Virus record (IMG/VR): IMGVR_UViG_3300021171_000008
Location: 14,423 to 78,422 of that record
DNA: 64,000 bases
Reading direction: 5' to 3' (one strand)
Source: a virus
The first letter of the stretch is position 1. Every line of letters starts with the position of its first letter. The notes under the pieces are model-generated. The model was not told the origin of the DNA. It made no database searches and saw only the letters and a program-made list of their open reading frames with translations. A program made the position numbers and the translations under genes. Below, piece after piece: positions 3,543-36,873 of this stretch.

Positions 3543-3671
3543 GGTTTCGACTCCTGTAGGCGACATAAATATAGCGTTATTTGCACGATCTGCAAGTGCC
3601 GGTCAGGGCTCGCACACCTTGTCCGAAGCGGCAGTCGGTACCATGCTTCAGCGGACGCGATGGTCATCAGG

Positions 3672-10860: not shown

Positions 10861-12140
10861 TAAGCCCCCACCTTGTCAGCGACGACGCGCCATGCTTTCA
10901 ACTGCGCCAACGAGATCCGAGCCATCTCGTCCGGGGGTAATTCGTTCACCCATTTCTCAAGTTCAGGGCGGCCCTTTTGGGCCATGTTCGCGCCGCGCAT
11001 CTCGATCGACGGCGTCAGGAGATCGGAACGCTCGGTGCGTTTACGGGATGTCCCACCGGGAGCTTGCGAGGGGGTTTTCGCCGCTCCCGGTGGCGCTTGC
11101 GAACCGGATAATTGCGGCTGATCCGGCTCGGGCGTGACGACCGAAGAGCGGGGAGCCCCCTGGTCGCCAGCATCCGGAGCCGGGGGAATCTCGGCCCCAG
11201 ATTCAGATAGTTGCGCGGCCCCCTCGGAAGCCCCGGCGCCTACTCCGGAAACATCGTCATGGGGGGCCGCGCGTTCCTCGGACGCAGGAGTCGCCACGTC
11301 GTCGGAAGCTGGAAATTCGCCGGTCTCGGGATCGACTCCTACGAGAAAGTCTAGGCGGTCTGACAGTACGCGCGGCGCCTGAACCCGGTCCGCGCGATCG
11401 CGGTCAACATCATATAGCTCATCATCCCGCGATAACAAACCAAGGATGTCGCTCGACATTGGGAGCTGCTTGGCATGACGCCGCGCGACCGTTTTTTTCG
11501 CCATCTCGGCGAACGATCGCCGCCACGCGGGCGAGAACTCGCCCTTGCGGTTCTTCCGCGCATAGGTATCGCGAACCAGCTCGACCTCGGCGCGGGTCAT
11601 GACGTCGCGCGACTTGTCCCCACCCTTTATCGTCGCGACGGAATAGACATGGGTGAGGACACCATGGTCGAGATGTTGACGCAGGCGCTTGTTGAAAGCG
11701 GCCTCGTCTTCGTCCGTGCCACGCTCCAGCGTGGGGGCCATGTAGGGCTTGTGGCGGATGAACGGGGTATCGCCCAGCTCGTAGTCGAAGTGATCCTTGG
11801 AGAAGACTGCCGTCACATCCCATGAGGTGACGTCGCCCGACCGGCGGACCTTCTTTCTGACGCCGGCAACCATCGGCATCCAAGTGACTTGACCGTCGAA
11901 GGCAACCAGGGCGCCGTCATGCCCGTCCGGCACCAGCCCGTCGCTCGCCGCCTTCATGGCCGCGTTCATCAGGCTGCGTCGGTTGGCGTTGAGCAGCTCC
12001 GGGTTGAGCGCGATCGCTGTCATGATGACGCGAACGAACTTTTTCGGGCTGATGCCGGACCCGGCCAGCGCCGCCTCGAACTGGCTTACGCGCTGGCCCA
12101 GCTCCTGCGCGATCGTGAGATCTCTAGACTCCGCCATCAT
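10860..12140 (-). CDS. recT: RecT-family single-strand annealing recombinase with disordered C-terminal extension
   Basis: KFVRVIMTAI..NPEL....SLM.A...AA.DGL.PDG and FAEMAKKTV.RR..KQLPMS motifs; next to a YqaJ exonuclease. Confidence 0.88.
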   Translation of the reverse strand: MMAESRDLTIAQELGQRVSQFEAALAGSGISPKKFVRVIMTAIALNPELLNANRRSLMNAAMKAASDGLVPDGHDGALVAFDGQVTWMPMVAGVRKKVRRSGDVTSWDVTAVFSKDHFDYELGDTPFIRHKPYMAPTLERGTDEDEAAFNKRLRQHLDHGVLTHVYSVATIKGGDKSRDVMTRAEVELVRDTYARKNRKGEFSPAWRRSFAEMAKKTVARRHAKQLPMSSDILGLLSRDDELYDVDRDRADRVQAPRVLSDRLDFLVGVDPETGEFPASDDVATPASEERAAPHDDVSGVGAGASEGAAQLSESGAEIPPAPDAGDQGAPRSSVVTPEPDQPQLSGSQAPPGAAKTPSQAPGGTSRKRTERSDLLTPSIEMRGANMAQKGRPELEKWVNELPPDEMARISLAQLKAWRVVADKVGA

Positions 12141-14778: not shown

Positions 14779-15336
14779 ATGACCAAGATCCTGGCGATCG
14801 ACTGCGCGACGCAATGCGGCCTCGCTTCCGGCGAGCCGGGAGAAACTCCACGACTCGAAACCGTTCACTTTGGGGATAACGGGGACAACCATTTGCAGGT
14901 TGGCGCCCAGTGCTTGAAGTGGATCGCCTTTCGGCTGTCTGATGACCGTCCGGACGAGATCTGGATGGAGGAGCCGTTGGCGTTCAGTGGGAAGGAAGGC
15001 GAAACGAGCGCCGCGTCCCGCGTGCGGCTTAACGGCCTTTACATGATCATCGGCGCGGCGGCGCGCCTCAAGGGCGTGCCTGTGCATCCCGTCAAGATCA
15101 CGACCGCCCGCAAGGGGTTTCTGGGCCATGGCGGGCTCAAGCGCGCTGTGGCGAAGAAGCGCTCTCGCGCGATGTGCCGGTTGCTCGGCTGGACCCCTCA
15201 GAACGACGACGAAGCGGACGCCGGCTGCATATTCTGGTTCGCCGGCCTCGCCCACGGCAAGCCCACGCCGATCTCCAAGCTCATGCAGAAGCAGATCGTC
15301 GAGGTTGTCCCGTTCCGGCGGCGGGTAGCCGCATGA
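14779..15336 (+). CDS. RuvC-like Holliday junction resolvase
   Basis: ILAID..T.CG.A, EEP and DDEADA acidic catalytic motifs. Confidence 0.75.
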   Translation: MTKILAIDCATQCGLASGEPGETPRLETVHFGDNGDNHLQVGAQCLKWIAFRLSDDRPDEIWMEEPLAFSGKEGETSAASRVRLNGLYMIIGAAARLKGVPVHPVKITTARKGFLGHGGLKRAVAKKRSRAMCRLLGWTPQNDDEADAGCIFWFAGLAHGKPTPISKLMQKQIVEVVPFRRRVAA

Positions 15337-25864: not shown

Positions 25865-25957
25865 TGAACTCGACTCCAAAAAAGAAAACCGGGCGGTAGG
25901 CGCCGCCCGGTCCTGATATGGCATGCTCTGCAAAAACCGTCAAGATGACGCCAGTTT

Positions 25958-26890: not shown

Positions 26891-27170
26891 GGTTCGACTC
26901 CTTCAATCGACCGAGGGCGCGTGCCGCCTCTGCTTGTCGTTTCTCTTGAGCGGCGGCGCCCCTAACCTCGTTCCAATGAGCGCGCAGCTCACGATCCAAA
27001 CAGCCACAAGACTTTGTGTGGCCCCTGCGCAGATTGTTGCTGCGCGCGATCGAGGTCGCGCCGCAGTCGCATGAACAATTCCAAAATGTGTGCTTGCCAG
27101 CTCGCGCGGCGAGTCGGACGGCAATGAGCCGCCCGAAACGGATTCCGCTCAGATCGACGATGGCGGGCAT
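26883..27170 (-). CDS. Cys-rich domain usually found N-terminal to phage HNH/AP2 proteins, here stand-alone
   Basis: DLSGIRFGRL....WNCSCDCG......NLRRG.TKSCGC; no HNH motif follows. Confidence 0.65.
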   Translation of the reverse strand: MPAIVDLSGIRFGRLIAVRLAARAGKHTFWNCSCDCGATSIARSNNLRRGHTKSCGCLDRELRAHWNEVRGAAAQEKRQAEAARALGRLKESNHD

Positions 27171-28084
27171 TAGGCGGCCTCCAGAGCGGGTTCCTCCTCG
27201 TCCGCCTCCTCTGCACTCACCTTGCCGCGTAACCAGTCTACGGCCTTGCTGGCCGCACTGGCGGCGGTCACGATCGCCGTCTCTTTCTGGGACAGGAGCG
27301 AAACCCAGTGGTCGATGTAGGCGGCCGGAGCCTCGCCCATGTCGATGCCCCACTCGGCGCAGACGAAAGCCGCCGTTAGCTCGGCGATCAGCTCCTCGGC
27401 CGCATATTCGCGGTCCCCAAACTTGCCCTTCAGCTCGCGGCCCAGGCGCGAGGGATGCCCGGTCGCGTGGCCCATCTCATGAAAGAGCGTGCTGTAGAAG
27501 GCATGGGCGCCGACAAAGGCCTCAAACGCGGGCATCTGGATGCGATCGAGCGAGGGCGCATACTGGGCGCGCGCGCCTCGGCCTTCCTCGATGCGGATCT
27601 CGGTCGCGGCGACGAAGGCGTCGAGATCAGCGTCGCGCCCGTCAGGATTGACCGGGGCATGCTGGCGAGGCTCGCCCAGGCCCATGACCGAATCCGGCAG
27701 CCCCTCGCACTGCGCCACGTTGAAAACCGTGTAGCTGCGCAAGAAACCAATGGTCTTTTTCTCGCCAGGATTCTTATCGTCCTTTACGAGCATGCGCTTG
27801 ACGAAGATCACGGCGACGCCGTGCTCGTGTTTCTTGACGTTGCCGCCTGCCGCCTTGGCCTGCTTGAAGGTCAGCCAGCGCGGCGTGCTGTAGCCCTCGA
27901 CCTCGGCCACGCCCCAGAGCAACAGGACGTTAGCGCCGCTGTAGAAGCGGCCGGTGACCGCATTGCGCGGCATCACGCTGCCATGCGCGCCAACGCGCTC
28001 GGACCAGGGCTTGCGCCAGGGCGCAACGCCAGTTTTCAGCTGGGCGAGAATCTTGTCGGTGATCTCGCGGTGCATGTCTCGCAT
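27170..28084 (-). CDS. ardC: ArdC-family antirestriction protein (ssDNA-binding + zincin-like domain)
   Basis: ITD.I...L..G..PWRKPW, YSGAN, WLTFKQA, VFNVAQ, FHEMGHATGH and EELIAE motifs. Confidence 0.9.
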   Translation of the reverse strand: MRDMHREITDKILAQLKTGVAPWRKPWSERVGAHGSVMPRNAVTGRFYSGANVLLLWGVAEVEGYSTPRWLTFKQAKAAGGNVKKHEHGVAVIFVKRMLVKDDKNPGEKKTIGFLRSYTVFNVAQCEGLPDSVMGLGEPRQHAPVNPDGRDADLDAFVAATEIRIEEGRGARAQYAPSLDRIQMPAFEAFVGAHAFYSTLFHEMGHATGHPSRLGRELKGKFGDREYAAEELIAELTAAFVCAEWGIDMGEAPAAYIDHWVSLLSQKETAIVTAASAASKAVDWLRGKVSAEEADEEEPALEAA

Positions 28085-28159
28085 TGGGTTCGACTCCAAA
28101 AAGTTAAAGGGCGCGGGTAGGCCTGCGCCCCTCTCAGATAGCGTTAGATGCAAAAACTG

Positions 28160-28330
28160 TCAAGATGGCGACGATTTTGGATTGCGGGCGCGCCGCTCGG
28201 CCTCGGCCCTGGCCGCCGCCTTTTCCTTGGTGCAGTGGCGAATATGCGCCGCCTTCCCCAGCGCATTGTTGGTGATACGATCGCCGCAGATCGGGCAGAC
28301 GACACGCCGCCAGCGAATTTTGCGGGTCAT
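28160..28330 (-). CDS. Small C2H2-type zinc-finger-like protein
   Basis: CPICG.....NALGKAAHIRHC. Confidence 0.5.
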   Translation of the reverse strand: MTRKIRWRRVVCPICGDRITNNALGKAAHIRHCTKEKAAARAEAERRARNPKSSPS

Positions 28331-28506
28331 CAGCGCAGCTCCTTCCGCCGCGAATCCAGCTCGGCGCGGATGGCCTGAAGGTGAAGCTCCAGCACGCTCA
28401 TCGCCAAACCGCACCGGGTTGAATCGCCGCTCTTGATGGCCTCTTCCGCGCGGCGCGCCTCGCGACGAATCTCGCGGCAGCGCGTAATGATGTTTACGCA
28501 GTCCAT
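28330..28506 (-). CDS. Hypothetical 58-aa protein (not in the ORF track)
   Basis: GGAGTCGAGAAATG start, hand-translated MDCVNIITRCREIRREARRAEEAIKSG... Confidence 0.55.
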   Translation of the reverse strand: MDCVNIITRCREIRREARRAEEAIKSGDSTRCGLAMSVLELHLQAIRAELDSRRKELR

Positions 28507-28534
28507 TTCTCGACTCCTTCAGATTGCTGTGAGT

Positions 28535-28600
28535 AGGCTCATCAGGCGGCGCCTTACGCCGCGACACAGAGGCCCCAGGACGGGCCTCCGCGTTTCGCCC
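28535..28600 (-). ncRNA. Type II hammerhead ribozyme 1
   Basis: Minus strand: GGGC-GAAA-CGCGGAGGCCC(GTCCTG)GGGCCTCTGTG-TC-GCGGCG(TAAGG)CGCCGC-CTGATGA-GCCT; intact core and three stems. Confidence 0.9.
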
Positions 28601-28625
28601 TGGTTCAGAGTCCCGCTCGCGTTCC

Positions 28626-28970
28626 TCAGACGTAGACTTTCCCGCTGCCGCCCTCTTCGATGTCGATCGGGTCATATTCGCCCGTGACCGCGCCGAACTC
28701 GTCAGGCTGCAACAGATATTCGCGGACATGTTCCCAGCCGCGATCTGCGGTGCGAGGCACGATGCGCAAAAGATGCTCCGGCGGGAACCCAAAGGACTCG
28801 TCCTCAAAATCAACGCGCACGCAGTCCGCCGTCTCGCGCTCGCTTCCAGTGACAGTCGCCAACTCGCAAGCGACCAGCCGTCCGTCCCAGTCGGCAATGT
28901 CATCGCCCTCAAGGTCCACTCGGTCGCCAATGCGAATATCGGCGGCCTTCACTTCGATCATGCATTCCAT
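28626..28970 (-). CDS. Acidic hypothetical protein flanked by two ribozymes
   Basis: GGAGTCGA RBS before ATG 28970. Confidence 0.6.
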   Translation of the reverse strand: MECMIEVKAADIRIGDRVDLEGDDIADWDGRLVACELATVTGSERETADCVRVDFEDESFGFPPEHLLRIVPRTADRGWEHVREYLLQPDEFGAVTGEYDPIDIEEGGSGKVYV

Positions 28971-28989
28971 GGTCTTCGACTCCGTTGGT

Positions 28990-29045
28990 AGGCTCATCAG
29001 TGGCGGCCAAACCGCCAGACGCGCGCCAGAGCGCGCGTTTCGCCT
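28990..29045 (-). ncRNA. Type II hammerhead ribozyme 2
   Basis: Minus strand: AGGC-GAAA-CGCGCGC(TCTG)GCGCGCG-TC-TGGCGG(TTTGG)CCGCCA-CTGATGA-GCCT; 3' CCAA can pair with loop I TTGG. Confidence 0.93.
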
Positions 29046-29617
29046 TCAGAACTTGACCGGGATCATGGTGACGCAATTGTCCTCTGTCTTTTCCAGGCGG
29101 ACATGGCGCCACATATGGAGTTCGCGATCCCGGCGGATGCGCGCGAACTGTTTAGCCTCGGACTCATTGTCGAAGGCGCGGATCAGGTCTTGAGTGATAC
29201 CGGGGTAGGTCACGATCCACTTGGTCATGCTGCCCTCCCGAGCGGGAACCGCACCGGCAGAGCCTCGCGGGCAAGACGATCGCGCTTGGCCGCCATGGCC
29301 GCCTTGTAGGCCTCGACAATGCCCCCGTGCATGCCGACGCGGTCGAGGGAGAGTTTGCCGGTCGCCCAGGCGGCGCGATCGGCGTTAGCCTGCGCCGCGA
29401 ACTCAGCGCGAATCTTCGCGCGGTGTTTGGCGTCGTCGACGTGCGCCGTCTTCTGCCCGCTCGGGGCATTAGTCGGCCAAGTGTCGACCGCGACCTTGCG
29501 GCCGGGTTTCGCTGGCTTGGTGTAAATTGGCCCCCAGGACTCGGGCTCGACGCGCTTGCCGTCGCGATAGGGCAAGTCCTCGAACGAAAACGGGCGCAGA
29601 TCAGATTCGCGTGACAT
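29046..29617 (-). CDS. Two early hypothetical genes (29046-29228, 29225-29617)
   Basis: Coupled ORFs; TTGACC-N17-TATTTG promoter, GCCTAC hairpin and GGAGTCGA RBS upstream. Confidence 0.55.
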
Positions 29618-29747
29618 GGGTTCGACTCCAGTTTGGGCGCCGTAGGCGGCGCCTGTCCCTCAAATAGGGGGTTACGGTACGCCGGTCAAGCTATTTTCGT
29701 CGTCATCGTGACGATTTTCTCGAGCCGGAACGGACTCCTTATTACAT

Positions 29748-29860
29748 TGTCCCCAGCCAGTCCCCTTCCCAGGCTCGAGGAACAGCCAGTTTGTCCCGCG
29801 CTTGTCCCCAGCTCGGACATGTCCTCGTTTGTCCCTCGCAGCTGTCCCTTTTCGGTCCCT
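29748..29860 (+). repeat. TGTCCC iteron-like direct repeats (candidate replication origin)
   Basis: TGTCCC at 29748, 29792, 29803, 29830 and 29843, variants at 29760, 29820 and 29854, in intergenic DNA. Confidence 0.55.
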
Positions 29861-30324: not shown

Positions 30325-30394
30325 GGTTCGACTCCTCACTCCACTTGCAGATCATGCAAATGGACGCCAGGAATGGATCGCGGTCAAGAGCGCT

Positions 30395-31027
30395 TCAGTG
30401 GATCTCGTCGTCGACGTCGAAGTCTCGCTTGGGCGATGGCTCACGGTCGTCGATCGCTTGCCAGTTGCGCTCGGTCTTTTGAGCGCGAATTTTCGCCAGC
30501 TCTTTGTCCGTGAGCGTGCCGAACCGATCGACCAGCTCAAGCTTGCCGCCGTTGTACCAAGCCGCGCCTTTGGTCGGATTGATGAGCCGACGCCAGACGT
30601 CGCCGTGCTCGGCCTGGAAGCGCAACCGTCGATCGCGGACGAAAGCGCTGTCCGCAATGATCTCCACCGTGTCAGGGATCTCGCCACGCCGCAGATAGGG
30701 CCACAGGCGCGCAGCGATGATCCACTCGCGGCAATTGGGCTTGCGGAACGCCTCATGCGCCCAACGCCCGCAGTGGGCTAATTCGCCGCTATCGCGAATC
30801 CAGGCCAAATCGCCATAACGCCGCTCGGTCAGTACGCGCGCCGTCAAAGTGCGGTCCGAGCGTTTCGCGGCCGGTCCAGGGCGCCGAATGGAACAGGTGA
30901 TCAGCACCGCGCGCGTGGCTCGATTGATCACCGCCCAAGGCTCAAACAACGCCAGAACCTCATCAGCGCTCGCCAGGGTTGGACTTCCCCGCCTCGCAAT
31001 TTCAATCATTTGCGCCTCCGCTACCAA
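30395..31027 (-). CDS. Hypothetical protein
   Basis: 210-aa ORF; start uncertain. Confidence 0.45.
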   Translation of the reverse strand: MVAEAQMIEIARRGSPTLASADEVLALFEPWAVINRATRAVLITCSIRRPGPAAKRSDRTLTARVLTERRYGDLAWIRDSGELAHCGRWAHEAFRKPNCREWIIAARLWPYLRRGEIPDTVEIIADSAFVRDRRLRFQAEHGDVWRRLINPTKGAAWYNGGKLELVDRFGTLTDKELAKIRAQKTERNWQAIDDREPSPKRDFDVDDEIH

Positions 31028-35189: not shown

Positions 35190-35861
35190 ATGGGCATCTG
35201 GGCGTTGATCGTGATGTGGTGGCGGGCGCGGCAGCGGGACGTCGACATGGAGATCCTGTGGCCGATCTGCCTGCGGGAGGCGGGCGATCTCGACCGGGCG
35301 AAAGCAGCATTTGCATTTCATGCTATGAACGACCCCGCGTGGTTGTGCCTGGGCGAGGAGCGGTTGCTCGCCTTCATCGACCGCCTGGAGGCCTATGACT
35401 GATGCCGACGAGCCGCCGTCTCTATGGAAACGCGGTTGATCAGATTGCCGATCGACTGACGGAGTCGCGCAAGCTCCTGCTTGAGGCGTTCAAAGCGATG
35501 GTGGATGAGCGCCCTGGCGAGGCGCAGACGTTGCTCGAACAGGCTGAGATGACGATTAGCGGCGCGGCGACGTTGGCCAAGTGGGCGACGACGCTCGTGA
35601 AGGAGGCGCGATGAGGATCGCGATTGTGCTTTTGGCCAATGCGCTCGTTTGGACGGCGCTTTGGCAGCTGGCGTCAGCGATGGCGCAATTCCGATGACCT
35701 CGCCAGCGCGGCAGCGGTTGTTGGACTTGGCGCAGAAGCTGGAGGATAGAGTTCCTCTGACGCCGAAGGAAAAGGCCTTTCTCGTGAGCGCCCTGTTAGC
35801 GATCAGCTTGGGCGTGGACGCCAATGAGGCGCTGTGGCTTAAGGACCGCAAGCCCAGGTAG
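35190..35861 (+). CDS. Small hypothetical genes (35190-35402, 35402-35614, 35694-35861)
   Basis: Coupled ORFs. Confidence 0.45.
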
Positions 35862-35928
35862 CTCAGTTCGGTAGAGCGCTGCGTTGAAGGCGCAGGCGTC
35901 GGAGGTTCGATTCCTTCCTTGGGCACCA
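35852..35928 (+). tRNA. tRNA-Phe (GAA) with encoded CCA
   Basis: Acceptor GCCCAGG/CTTGGGC, D-arm GCTC/GAGC, anticodon arm CTGCG-TTGAAGG-CGCAG, T-arm GGAGG-TTCGATT-CCTTC, ACCA end. Confidence 0.9.
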
Positions 35929-36788: not shown

Positions 36789-36873
36789 ATTTCTGGGCCT
36801 TGACGTTTCGCAGATCGTGCAAATATGGGCGAAACCACGGCCTACCGTTGGCTATTACAGCAAAGGAGTCGAA

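Follow-up and report, generated by a model that had tools for sequence, protein, structure and literature searches.

Two type II hammerhead ribozymes between small genes of a soil phage as probable copies of an intercistronic unit

Introduction

Do two hammerhead ribozymes that bracket one small phage gene form a device dedicated to that gene, or are they two instances of a unit that recurs between phage genes? The question arises from a virus record of 78,422 bases in IMG/VR, which is rated complete and represents an uncultivated soil phage. We analysed a stretch of 64,000 nucleotides of this record, referred to below as the window, to whose first letter all positions refer. A first-pass annotation of the window described two self-cleaving RNAs that would together excise the message of one gene; here we examine the two motifs, their relatives in other phages, and the readings that their arrangement allows.

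Type II hammerheads and their pseudoknot were first described by Perreault et al. in 2011 (PMC3088659). In prophages, several hammerheads were found "on many occasions" to flank single genes or short gene blocks, and the authors proposed that long phage transcripts are processed into gene-length mRNAs (PMC3088659). In vitro, three clusters of this kind were shown to cleave as expected; one of them, a trio from Agrobacterium tumefaciens that flanks an anti-restriction gene, also cleaves in E. coli (PMC3088659). According to a 2017 review, the ORFs flanked by these motifs are small and non-conserved, and the role of the motifs is open (PMC6155905). For the class as a whole it is established that cleavage leaves a 2',3'-cyclic phosphate on the 5' product and a 5'-OH on the 3' product.

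Results

The Operon and Its Neighbours

The two ribozymes lie in a block of small minus-strand genes that adjoins an ArdC-like gene (27170-28153), an HNH gene and an SNF2 helicase gene. The terminase and structural genes are transcribed in the opposite direction, and because the block is antiparallel to them, the operon can reasonably be inferred from its gene neighbourhood to be early. Its transcription probably starts at a pair of promoter-like boxes on the minus strand (29630-29690), with CTTGAC at 29690-29685, a 17-nt spacer and CTATTT at 29667-29662, an arrangement that matches the rhizobial sigma-70 consensus; a consensus promoter scanner made no call at 29690-29662. Downstream of the boxes follow a leader hairpin, GGCGCC-GCCUAC-GGCGCC, and a ribosome-binding site, and the ArdC-like and SNF2 genes are preceded by the same promoter-leader layout.

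According to the list of open reading frames, two cistrons of 130 codons (29225-29617) and 60 codons (29046-29228) make up the upstream part of the transcript (29046-29617, minus). The bracketed gene has 114 codons (28626-28970, minus), and its ATG at 28970 is preceded by GGAGTCGA at 28983-28976. Further downstream on the same strand, in what would be the third RNA piece, are a cistron of 58 codons (28330-28506), preceded by GGAGTCGA at 28517-28510, and a possible one of 53 codons (28144-28305). The stretch 27170-28165 (minus) holds the ArdC-like anti-restriction/zincin gene, which is equipped with a CTTGAC promoter of its own and with a leader hairpin and U-tract; the gene matches the Pfam families ArdcN (1.1e-36) and MPTase-PolyVal (2.7e-41) as well as PHROG 7245 (3.9e-82). 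The 114-codon gene is an orphan: it has no Pfam or PHROG match, the protein atlas assigns it to unnamed clusters only, below 0.9, and just 3 homologues were found among 5.8 billion proteins. The downstream cistrons (28144-28506) likewise have no family match in Pfam or PHROG. The stop codon of the 114-codon gene (TGA, 28626-28628) is followed seven codons on by a second in-frame TGA, which occupies the canonical 'TGA-ACC-ribozyme' position (28605-28628, minus); the double stop suggests either that an earlier stop arose recently or that a readthrough extension is tolerated. Elsewhere in the phage record a tRNA gene (60.8 bits) is encoded on the plus strand at 35852-35925.

Near-identical DNA is contained in 23 soil metagenome runs, and a blastn search with the 1-kb hammerhead region against 50,697 phage records returned no match. 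One metatranscriptome run, with 6% of the sampled words, gave a single contig of 156 nt (29264-29419), located upstream of both ribozymes, and no sequence at the ribozymes themselves.

Two Hammerheads of Contrasting Design

The upstream motif, HH1 (28984-29046, minus), is a type II hammerhead with a loop I/3'-tail pseudoknot, recognised by reading the sequence, by our own parser and by Rfam. Stem II is formed by AGGC/GCCU (4 bp) and followed by GAA, stem III comprises 8 bp beginning with the A-U pair, and stem I comprises 7 bp. The CUGAUGA box is located at 29000-28994, and the predicted cut after the GUC triplet falls at 29018/29017. The pseudoknot consists of 4 bp between UUGG in loop I (29010-29007) and CCAA (28988-28985) in the tail ACCAAC. 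The first-pass annotation had placed a UUGG/CCAA pseudoknot in its "ribozyme 2"; the pairing is present and belongs to the transcript-upstream ribozyme at 29045, and none is recognisable in HH2. HH1 scores 39.3 bits with the Rfam model Hammerhead_II (RF02276), whose gathering score is 37, and its minimum-energy fold is the hammerhead fold.

The downstream motif, HH2 (28527-28601, minus), is a type II hammerhead that was found by reading the sequence and by our parser. Its stem II, GGGC/GCCU, has 4 bp, one of them G-U, and is again followed by GAA; stem III comprises 12 bp and stem I 7 bp. The GUC triplet predicts a cut at 28563/28562, and the CUGAUGA box lies at 28545-28539. Scored over the full Rfam model RF02276, HH2 obtains just 17.5 bits, under the 37-bit gathering score, so that the model search suggested as a check on the pair accepted HH1 and failed HH2; in a wider Rfam scan HH2 was masked by a partial type III match. 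The low score coincides with a long stem III, a short loop I and a tail that forms no pseudoknot, and the computed minimum-energy fold of HH2 differs from the hammerhead fold. With no recognisable loop I pseudoknot, HH2 may be slow at cellular Mg2+.

Both motifs have the conserved core, with CUGAUGA, GAA, an A-U pair at the base of stem III, GUC, and a G-C pair closing stem II. In both, the core is surrounded by three helices, of which stems I and III are capped by loops and stem II is open; the two ribozymes differ throughout stems I and III. The earlier description of two type II hammerheads with full cores and paired stems I-III on the coding strand thus proved correct when both were read and parsed anew, and re-reading gave the same two predicted cuts, which are 455 nt apart.

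A Hammerhead Subfamily in Related Phages

Relatives of the locus were fetched through the ArdC-like protein. Ten loci whose ArdC proteins are 65-100% identical carry 0-5 motifs of the same build, located upstream or just downstream of the ArdC gene; where motifs are present, 1-5 hammerheads lie within about 4 kb. In 151 kb of sequence from the window and its relatives, the parser found 23 motifs, compared to 0.025 per dinucleotide shuffle.

We aligned 22 distinct hammerheads from the window and eight related phage loci. In this alignment 96.1% of the cells pair, a percentage that is inflated next to the core, where the parser demands at least 4 paired positions, and changes on both sides are found in 16 of the 23 pairs. 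The covariation score is 0.533 compared to 0.156 after shuffling (none of 500 shuffles reaches the observed value), and sliding the partners by 1-3 columns lowers it to about 0.09. Both-sided changes affect 6 of the 7 pairs in stem I, where 100% of the cells pair, and 10 of the 12 pairs in stem III. Stem II shows no covariation: GGC/GCC is invariant, and the outer pair is A-U or G-U in all 22 members. The pair closing loop I is U-G in 21 members and U-A in one, and the two A's flanking stem II are invariant. Judging from these sequences, the U/G closure and the invariant A's hint at a non-Watson-Crick contact.

In a search with a covariance model built from the alignment, 26 hits scored 64-83 bits and the next best match 17.5 bits; every one of the 26 is on the gene strand, and three come from outside the training set. 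HH1 scores 69.7 bits with this model, and HH2 scores 81.8 bits, though as a member of the training set. In whole phage records of 46-78 kb the hits are confined to the region around the ArdC-like gene. Two low-scoring hits, at 14996 (17.5 bits) and 20598 (14.2 bits), are noise, and two candidates from a loose pattern (11966-12045 and 30960-31003) lack stems and were rejected by the parser. An Rfam scan of 15 related loci at the gathering threshold returned nothing, despite the presence of more than 20 family members, which indicates that the Rfam model or its filters under-detect this subfamily. Since the outer stem pairs and the new model hits escape the parser's bias, we accept HH2 as a genuine member of the family that is under-scored by the Rfam model.

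In pattern scans, the same stem II subfamily was found in at least 118 viral contigs, several of which carry 5-10 copies. The scans also revealed clusters in Microvirga, in a Hyphomicrobiaceae MAG, in Umezawaea and in Scandinavium.

Placement Between Cistrons

The family members share one order of elements: a stop codon, the type II hammerhead, a short tail, a GGAGUCGA ribosome-binding site, and a start codon. All 26 listed hits of the subfamily model lie outside short ORFs and directly ahead of the ribosome-binding site of the next gene. In most of them the ribozyme starts 0-5 nt past the stop codon, and often the first A is common to both; in all 26 the ribozyme ends 5-19 nt before GGAGTCGA and the ATG. 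The intercistronic, coding-strand placement described for the two ribozymes of the window is confirmed. The statement that each sits just after a stop codon applies to HH1, whose first nucleotide is the last A of the TGA (29046-29048) that ends the 60-codon gene, but not to HH2, which begins 25 nt past the TGA of the 114-codon gene. Similarly, GGAGTCGA does follow each ribozyme, but as the ribosome-binding motif of the phage in general it is not peculiar to them; the window has 19 copies compared to 3.1 expected, and this extended motif is also common to the relatives. It is almost always located a few bases before a start codon (e.g., 28976-28983, 28510-28517, 29622-29629, 28090-28097, and 25870-25877).

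Different phages have different genes behind the ribozymes, and most of these genes are orphans. For ten other ribozyme-flanked genes, no Pfam match was found in nine, and most had either no PHROG match or matched only families of unknown function. This distribution is difficult to reconcile with the earlier proposal that the pair is a device for one gene. The relatives carry 0-5 units in front of different orphan genes, and a nearly identical phage has a different upstream ribozyme and a third unit. Given the variable number of units and the variety of genes behind them, the bracketing of the 114-codon gene is incidental punctuation and does not constitute a dedicated excision device.

Mosaicism at the Ribozymes

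The nearly identical phage, L004, is 99.6% identical to the window from position 29005, within stem I and the core of HH1, downstream. Upstream of this breakpoint (L004:3146) it carries a different small gene and a different 5' part of the ribozyme, and its extra gene-plus-ribozyme unit is located behind the leader ribosome-binding site. One soil DNA contig fits the window up to 29001 and continues with the L004 type of stem I. The breakpoint within HH1 and the extra unit in L004 show that the conserved core and the ribosome site coincide with the boundaries of gene cassettes, a coincidence that may be a by-product of repeated sequence. More generally, soil DNA contigs were seen to fork at ribozyme and ribosome-binding-site modules.

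Tails Complementary to the Catalytic Box

The tail of HH2, CUCACAG (28533-28527), can pair with the ribozyme's own CUG-A-UGAG (28545-28538). The resulting hairpin has a computed energy of -5.1 kcal/mol, which a fraction of 0.019 of shuffled tails reach or beat. Complementarity to the own CUGANGA box is found in 15 long-tailed family members, HH2 included: their summed hairpin energy is -82.4 kcal/mol compared to -23.1 ± 6.2 for shuffled tails, and a flip of core position 7 between U and C leaves only -61.3. The paralogues of a single phage illustrate the match, with CUGAUG facing CAUCAG and CUGACG facing CGUCAG. The hairpin is absent from HH1 and from the other short-tailed members.

We tested the feature on 98 other phage hammerheads, none of which had been used to form the idea. 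The summed tail-core energy was -274.9 compared to -124.7 ± 13.9 for shuffled tails and -222 ± 12 when tails were permuted among ribozymes, and 29 of the 98 reached p ≤ 0.05 individually. As a positive control, the known pairing between loop I and the tail was also enriched in this set (-129.6 compared to -48.1 ± 12). Among 24 hammerheads from bacterial contigs, a small sample with several near-identical actinobacterial copies, the tail-core hairpin was not enriched (-42.0 compared to -44.4). A different pairing, in which the tail joins the 5' flank (the CUGA at the stop codon) and extends stem II, was rejected, its sum being -183.0 compared to -179.4 ± 13.5 for shuffled sequences. The tail hairpin may compete with the active fold before cleavage or lock a refolded state after it, and the sequences fit both. 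We found no description of a core-masking tail in the literature searched, which is not proof of novelty.

Discussion

The motifs, their covariation, their placement and the variable number of units, all observed here, lead us to regard HH1 and HH2, with a probability of about 0.8, as two copies of a portable intercistronic unit that cuts the message co-transcriptionally into gene-size pieces. By analogy with the characterised clusters, the two ribozymes most likely cut a long message into single-gene pieces: homologous clustered hammerheads of prophages dice RNAs of about 2 kb in vitro and in E. coli (PMC3088659), and the dicing of the polycistron proposed by the first-pass annotation finds its support in these experiments. 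Transcription would begin at the rhizobial-type promoter near 29690, and each ribozyme, on emerging from the polymerase, would fold and cut itself after GUC. A message of about 1.5 kb would thereby be divided into three pieces, namely one of about 640 nt with two genes, one of 455 nt with the 114-codon gene, and the remainder. The predicted release of the 455-nt RNA with a 5'-OH and a 2',3'-cyclic phosphate agrees with what had been proposed for this locus, the chemistry of the ends being that established for the class.

Each upstream piece would keep its stop codon and end in the G+C-rich hairpin of stem III with the cyclic phosphate, and each downstream piece would begin with a 5'-OH on the hairpin of stem I, followed by the standard leader and ribosome site. 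As the cuts are placed after a stop codon and before a ribosome site, both neighbours would stay translatable; and as only the 4-bp stem II joins the halves of a cleaved ribozyme, the halves should part. In HH1 the active fold would be braced by the pseudoknot between loop I and the tail. In HH2, once the 4-bp stem II falls apart, the tail could pair with the CUGAUGA box and form a second hairpin at the new 5' end, a refolding that would keep the ribosome site accessible. As a net result, the stability and translation of neighbouring accessory genes would probably become independent of each other; by analogy, plausible benefits would be insulated translation and a message shielded from exonucleases or from 5'-end-dependent RNase E.

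Several other readings of the same arrangement deserve consideration. One holds that cleavage is conditional, gated by the tail-core hairpin of HH2 together with a terminating ribosome, so that the fraction cut would depend on a factor or on the kinetics of transcription and translation. The tails match their own CUGANGA box, including the variable position 7, far beyond chance, and the stop codons abut or overlap the first nucleotide of the ribozyme, so that a terminating ribosome would be expected to cover stem II and half of stem III. However, the tail is made after the whole ribozyme, and co-transcriptional cleavage may be finished by then; refolding after cleavage explains the tail hairpin equally well, HH1 and other short-tailed members lack it, and no ligand-binding element is evident. 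We therefore consider conditional cutting unlikely, if worth keeping in mind. A related suggestion, that only HH1 works and that HH2 is a slow or dead relic retained as a hairpin-rich spacer, draws on the score of HH2 below the Rfam threshold and on its missing pseudoknot, whose deletion or mutation reduced the rate of a tested type II ribozyme by roughly 20-fold to more than 100-fold (PMC3088659). Yet many natural hammerheads do without the pseudoknot (PMC3088659), the core nucleotides of HH2 are all intact and both its stems fully paired, close relatives maintain the pairing through compensatory changes, and the pair closing loop I in 22 of 22 members and the invariant A's flanking stem II hint at a non-Watson-Crick contact, all of which makes a relic decidedly improbable.

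The mosaicism described above could also mean that the main selected role of the elements is exerted at the DNA level, with the ribozyme core and the ribosome site serving as short patches of homology for the swapping of accessory gene cassettes. The breakpoint inside HH1 that separates the window from L004, the extra unit in L004 and the soil contig that forks at 29001 all fit this reading; but these are two junctions plus one metagenome contig, and any conserved repeat can be expected to recombine incidentally. The strict conservation of the catalytic nucleotides and the compensatory changes in the stems imply selection on the RNA, and we judge a DNA-level role to be very unlikely. Finally, as the first-pass annotation had suggested for RtcB, the 455-nt piece might rejoin its ends, ligated by the reverse hammerhead reaction or by a host RtcB-type ligase, to form a translatable circular mRNA. 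The piece would begin with the 3' part of HH1 and close with the 5' part of HH2; given that stem II is common to all 22 aligned members, these ends could on paper form a composite hammerhead, and they are chemically right for RtcB. If true, this would be the first natural protein-coding circular RNA from paired ribozymes in a phage. However, two ends separated by 455 nt would have just 4 bp to hold them together, the phage encodes no RtcB, and circular or spliced products from such clusters have been sought and none found (PMC3088659). Moreover, the 114-codon gene has a normal stop codon in a normal linear context, the number and position of the ribozymes vary freely among relatives, and the runs searched contained no back-joined read, their RNA being the one 156-nt contig upstream of the ribozymes. 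We regard a circular message as extremely improbable and retain the cutting of a linear message by portable units as the preferred reading.

The layout of HH1 and HH2 has been known in phages since 2011, and the locus is a small, clean and ordinary example of it: as in the clusters described by Perreault et al., neighbouring ribozymes on the gene strand flank a single gene, here with cut sites 455 nt apart in a 78-kb virus record. Both ribozymes have the permuted topology of the type II class (RF02276), the core CUGAUGA/GAAA/GUC and the short conserved stem II, and HH1 has the typical pseudoknot between loop I and the 3' tail. HH2 and most relatives deviate from the class in scoring below the Rfam threshold, in the greater length of stem III, in a loop I of 3 nt with a U-G closing pair, and in lacking a recognisable pseudoknot, in place of which the tail is complementary to the CUGANGA box. 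The closest parallel in layout is the trio in the Agrobacterium tumefaciens prophage (PMC3088659, Fig. 3, S2, S3), where several gene-strand ribozymes are likewise found within a few kb, between small non-conserved phage genes and beside an anti-restriction gene. In contrast to the trio, the ribozymes of the window do not bracket the ArdC-like neighbour, and the unit is very regular, with stop codon, ribozyme and GGAGUCGA in succession. Retrozymes, viroids and other hammerhead-bounded circular RNAs also have two hammerheads bounding an RNA whose ends could rebuild a ribozyme; there, however, the repeats are near-identical, the RNAs are non-coding or replicons, and the circles are proven, whereas in the window stems I and III differ between the two ribozymes, and the RNA between them is an ordinary cistron that is not known to form a circle.

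The locus adds an example, not a new principle. There is also a resemblance to insulators of the RiboJ type, in which a hammerhead removes the upstream RNA and the hairpin that follows exposes the ribosome site, leaving a standard 5' leader. RiboJ is an engineered hammerhead from a satellite RNA that is placed after promoters, whereas the units described here are natural, of type II, and located between cistrons. The function of bacterial and phage hammerheads is open (PMC6155905), and for this question the locus is a tidy test case and not an answer. Its value lies in two contrasting designs, the pseudoknot-braced HH1 and HH2 with a tail able to mask the catalytic box, which flank a single small gene with a standard ribosome site, and in natural variants that differ in the number of units. 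The locus could thus show whether such ribozymes insulate neighbouring cistrons from each other, at which stage relative to cleavage the masking tail acts, and whether the core serves as a joint for the recombination of accessory genes.

The leaders of this phage contain further repeated elements. A promoter-leader module recurs at 29630-29690, 28095-28165 and 25875-25945 (all minus) and at 36795-36872 (plus); it consists of boxes resembling CTTGAC-N17-CTATNT, a G+C hairpin with a GCCUAC loop, often a U-tract, and then GGAGTCGA. The leader at 36820-36850 begins with GGGCGAAAC. GCCTAC is present in 39 copies in the window compared to 14.6 expected, and the same six bases end stem II of HH1 and HH2. 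A palindrome-like box, TTGCA-N-GATC-N-TGCAA, is located beside three promoter-like sites (30340-30360, minus; 36815-36835, plus; and 3575-3595, minus) and is a candidate operator for a repressor. Upstream of the operon promoter, a stretch of about 200 bases contains six GGGACA repeats (29748-29848, minus, plus 29654). GGGACA is not enriched across the window (26 copies compared to 29.6 expected), which makes the cluster a local one, and it may mark protein-binding sites.
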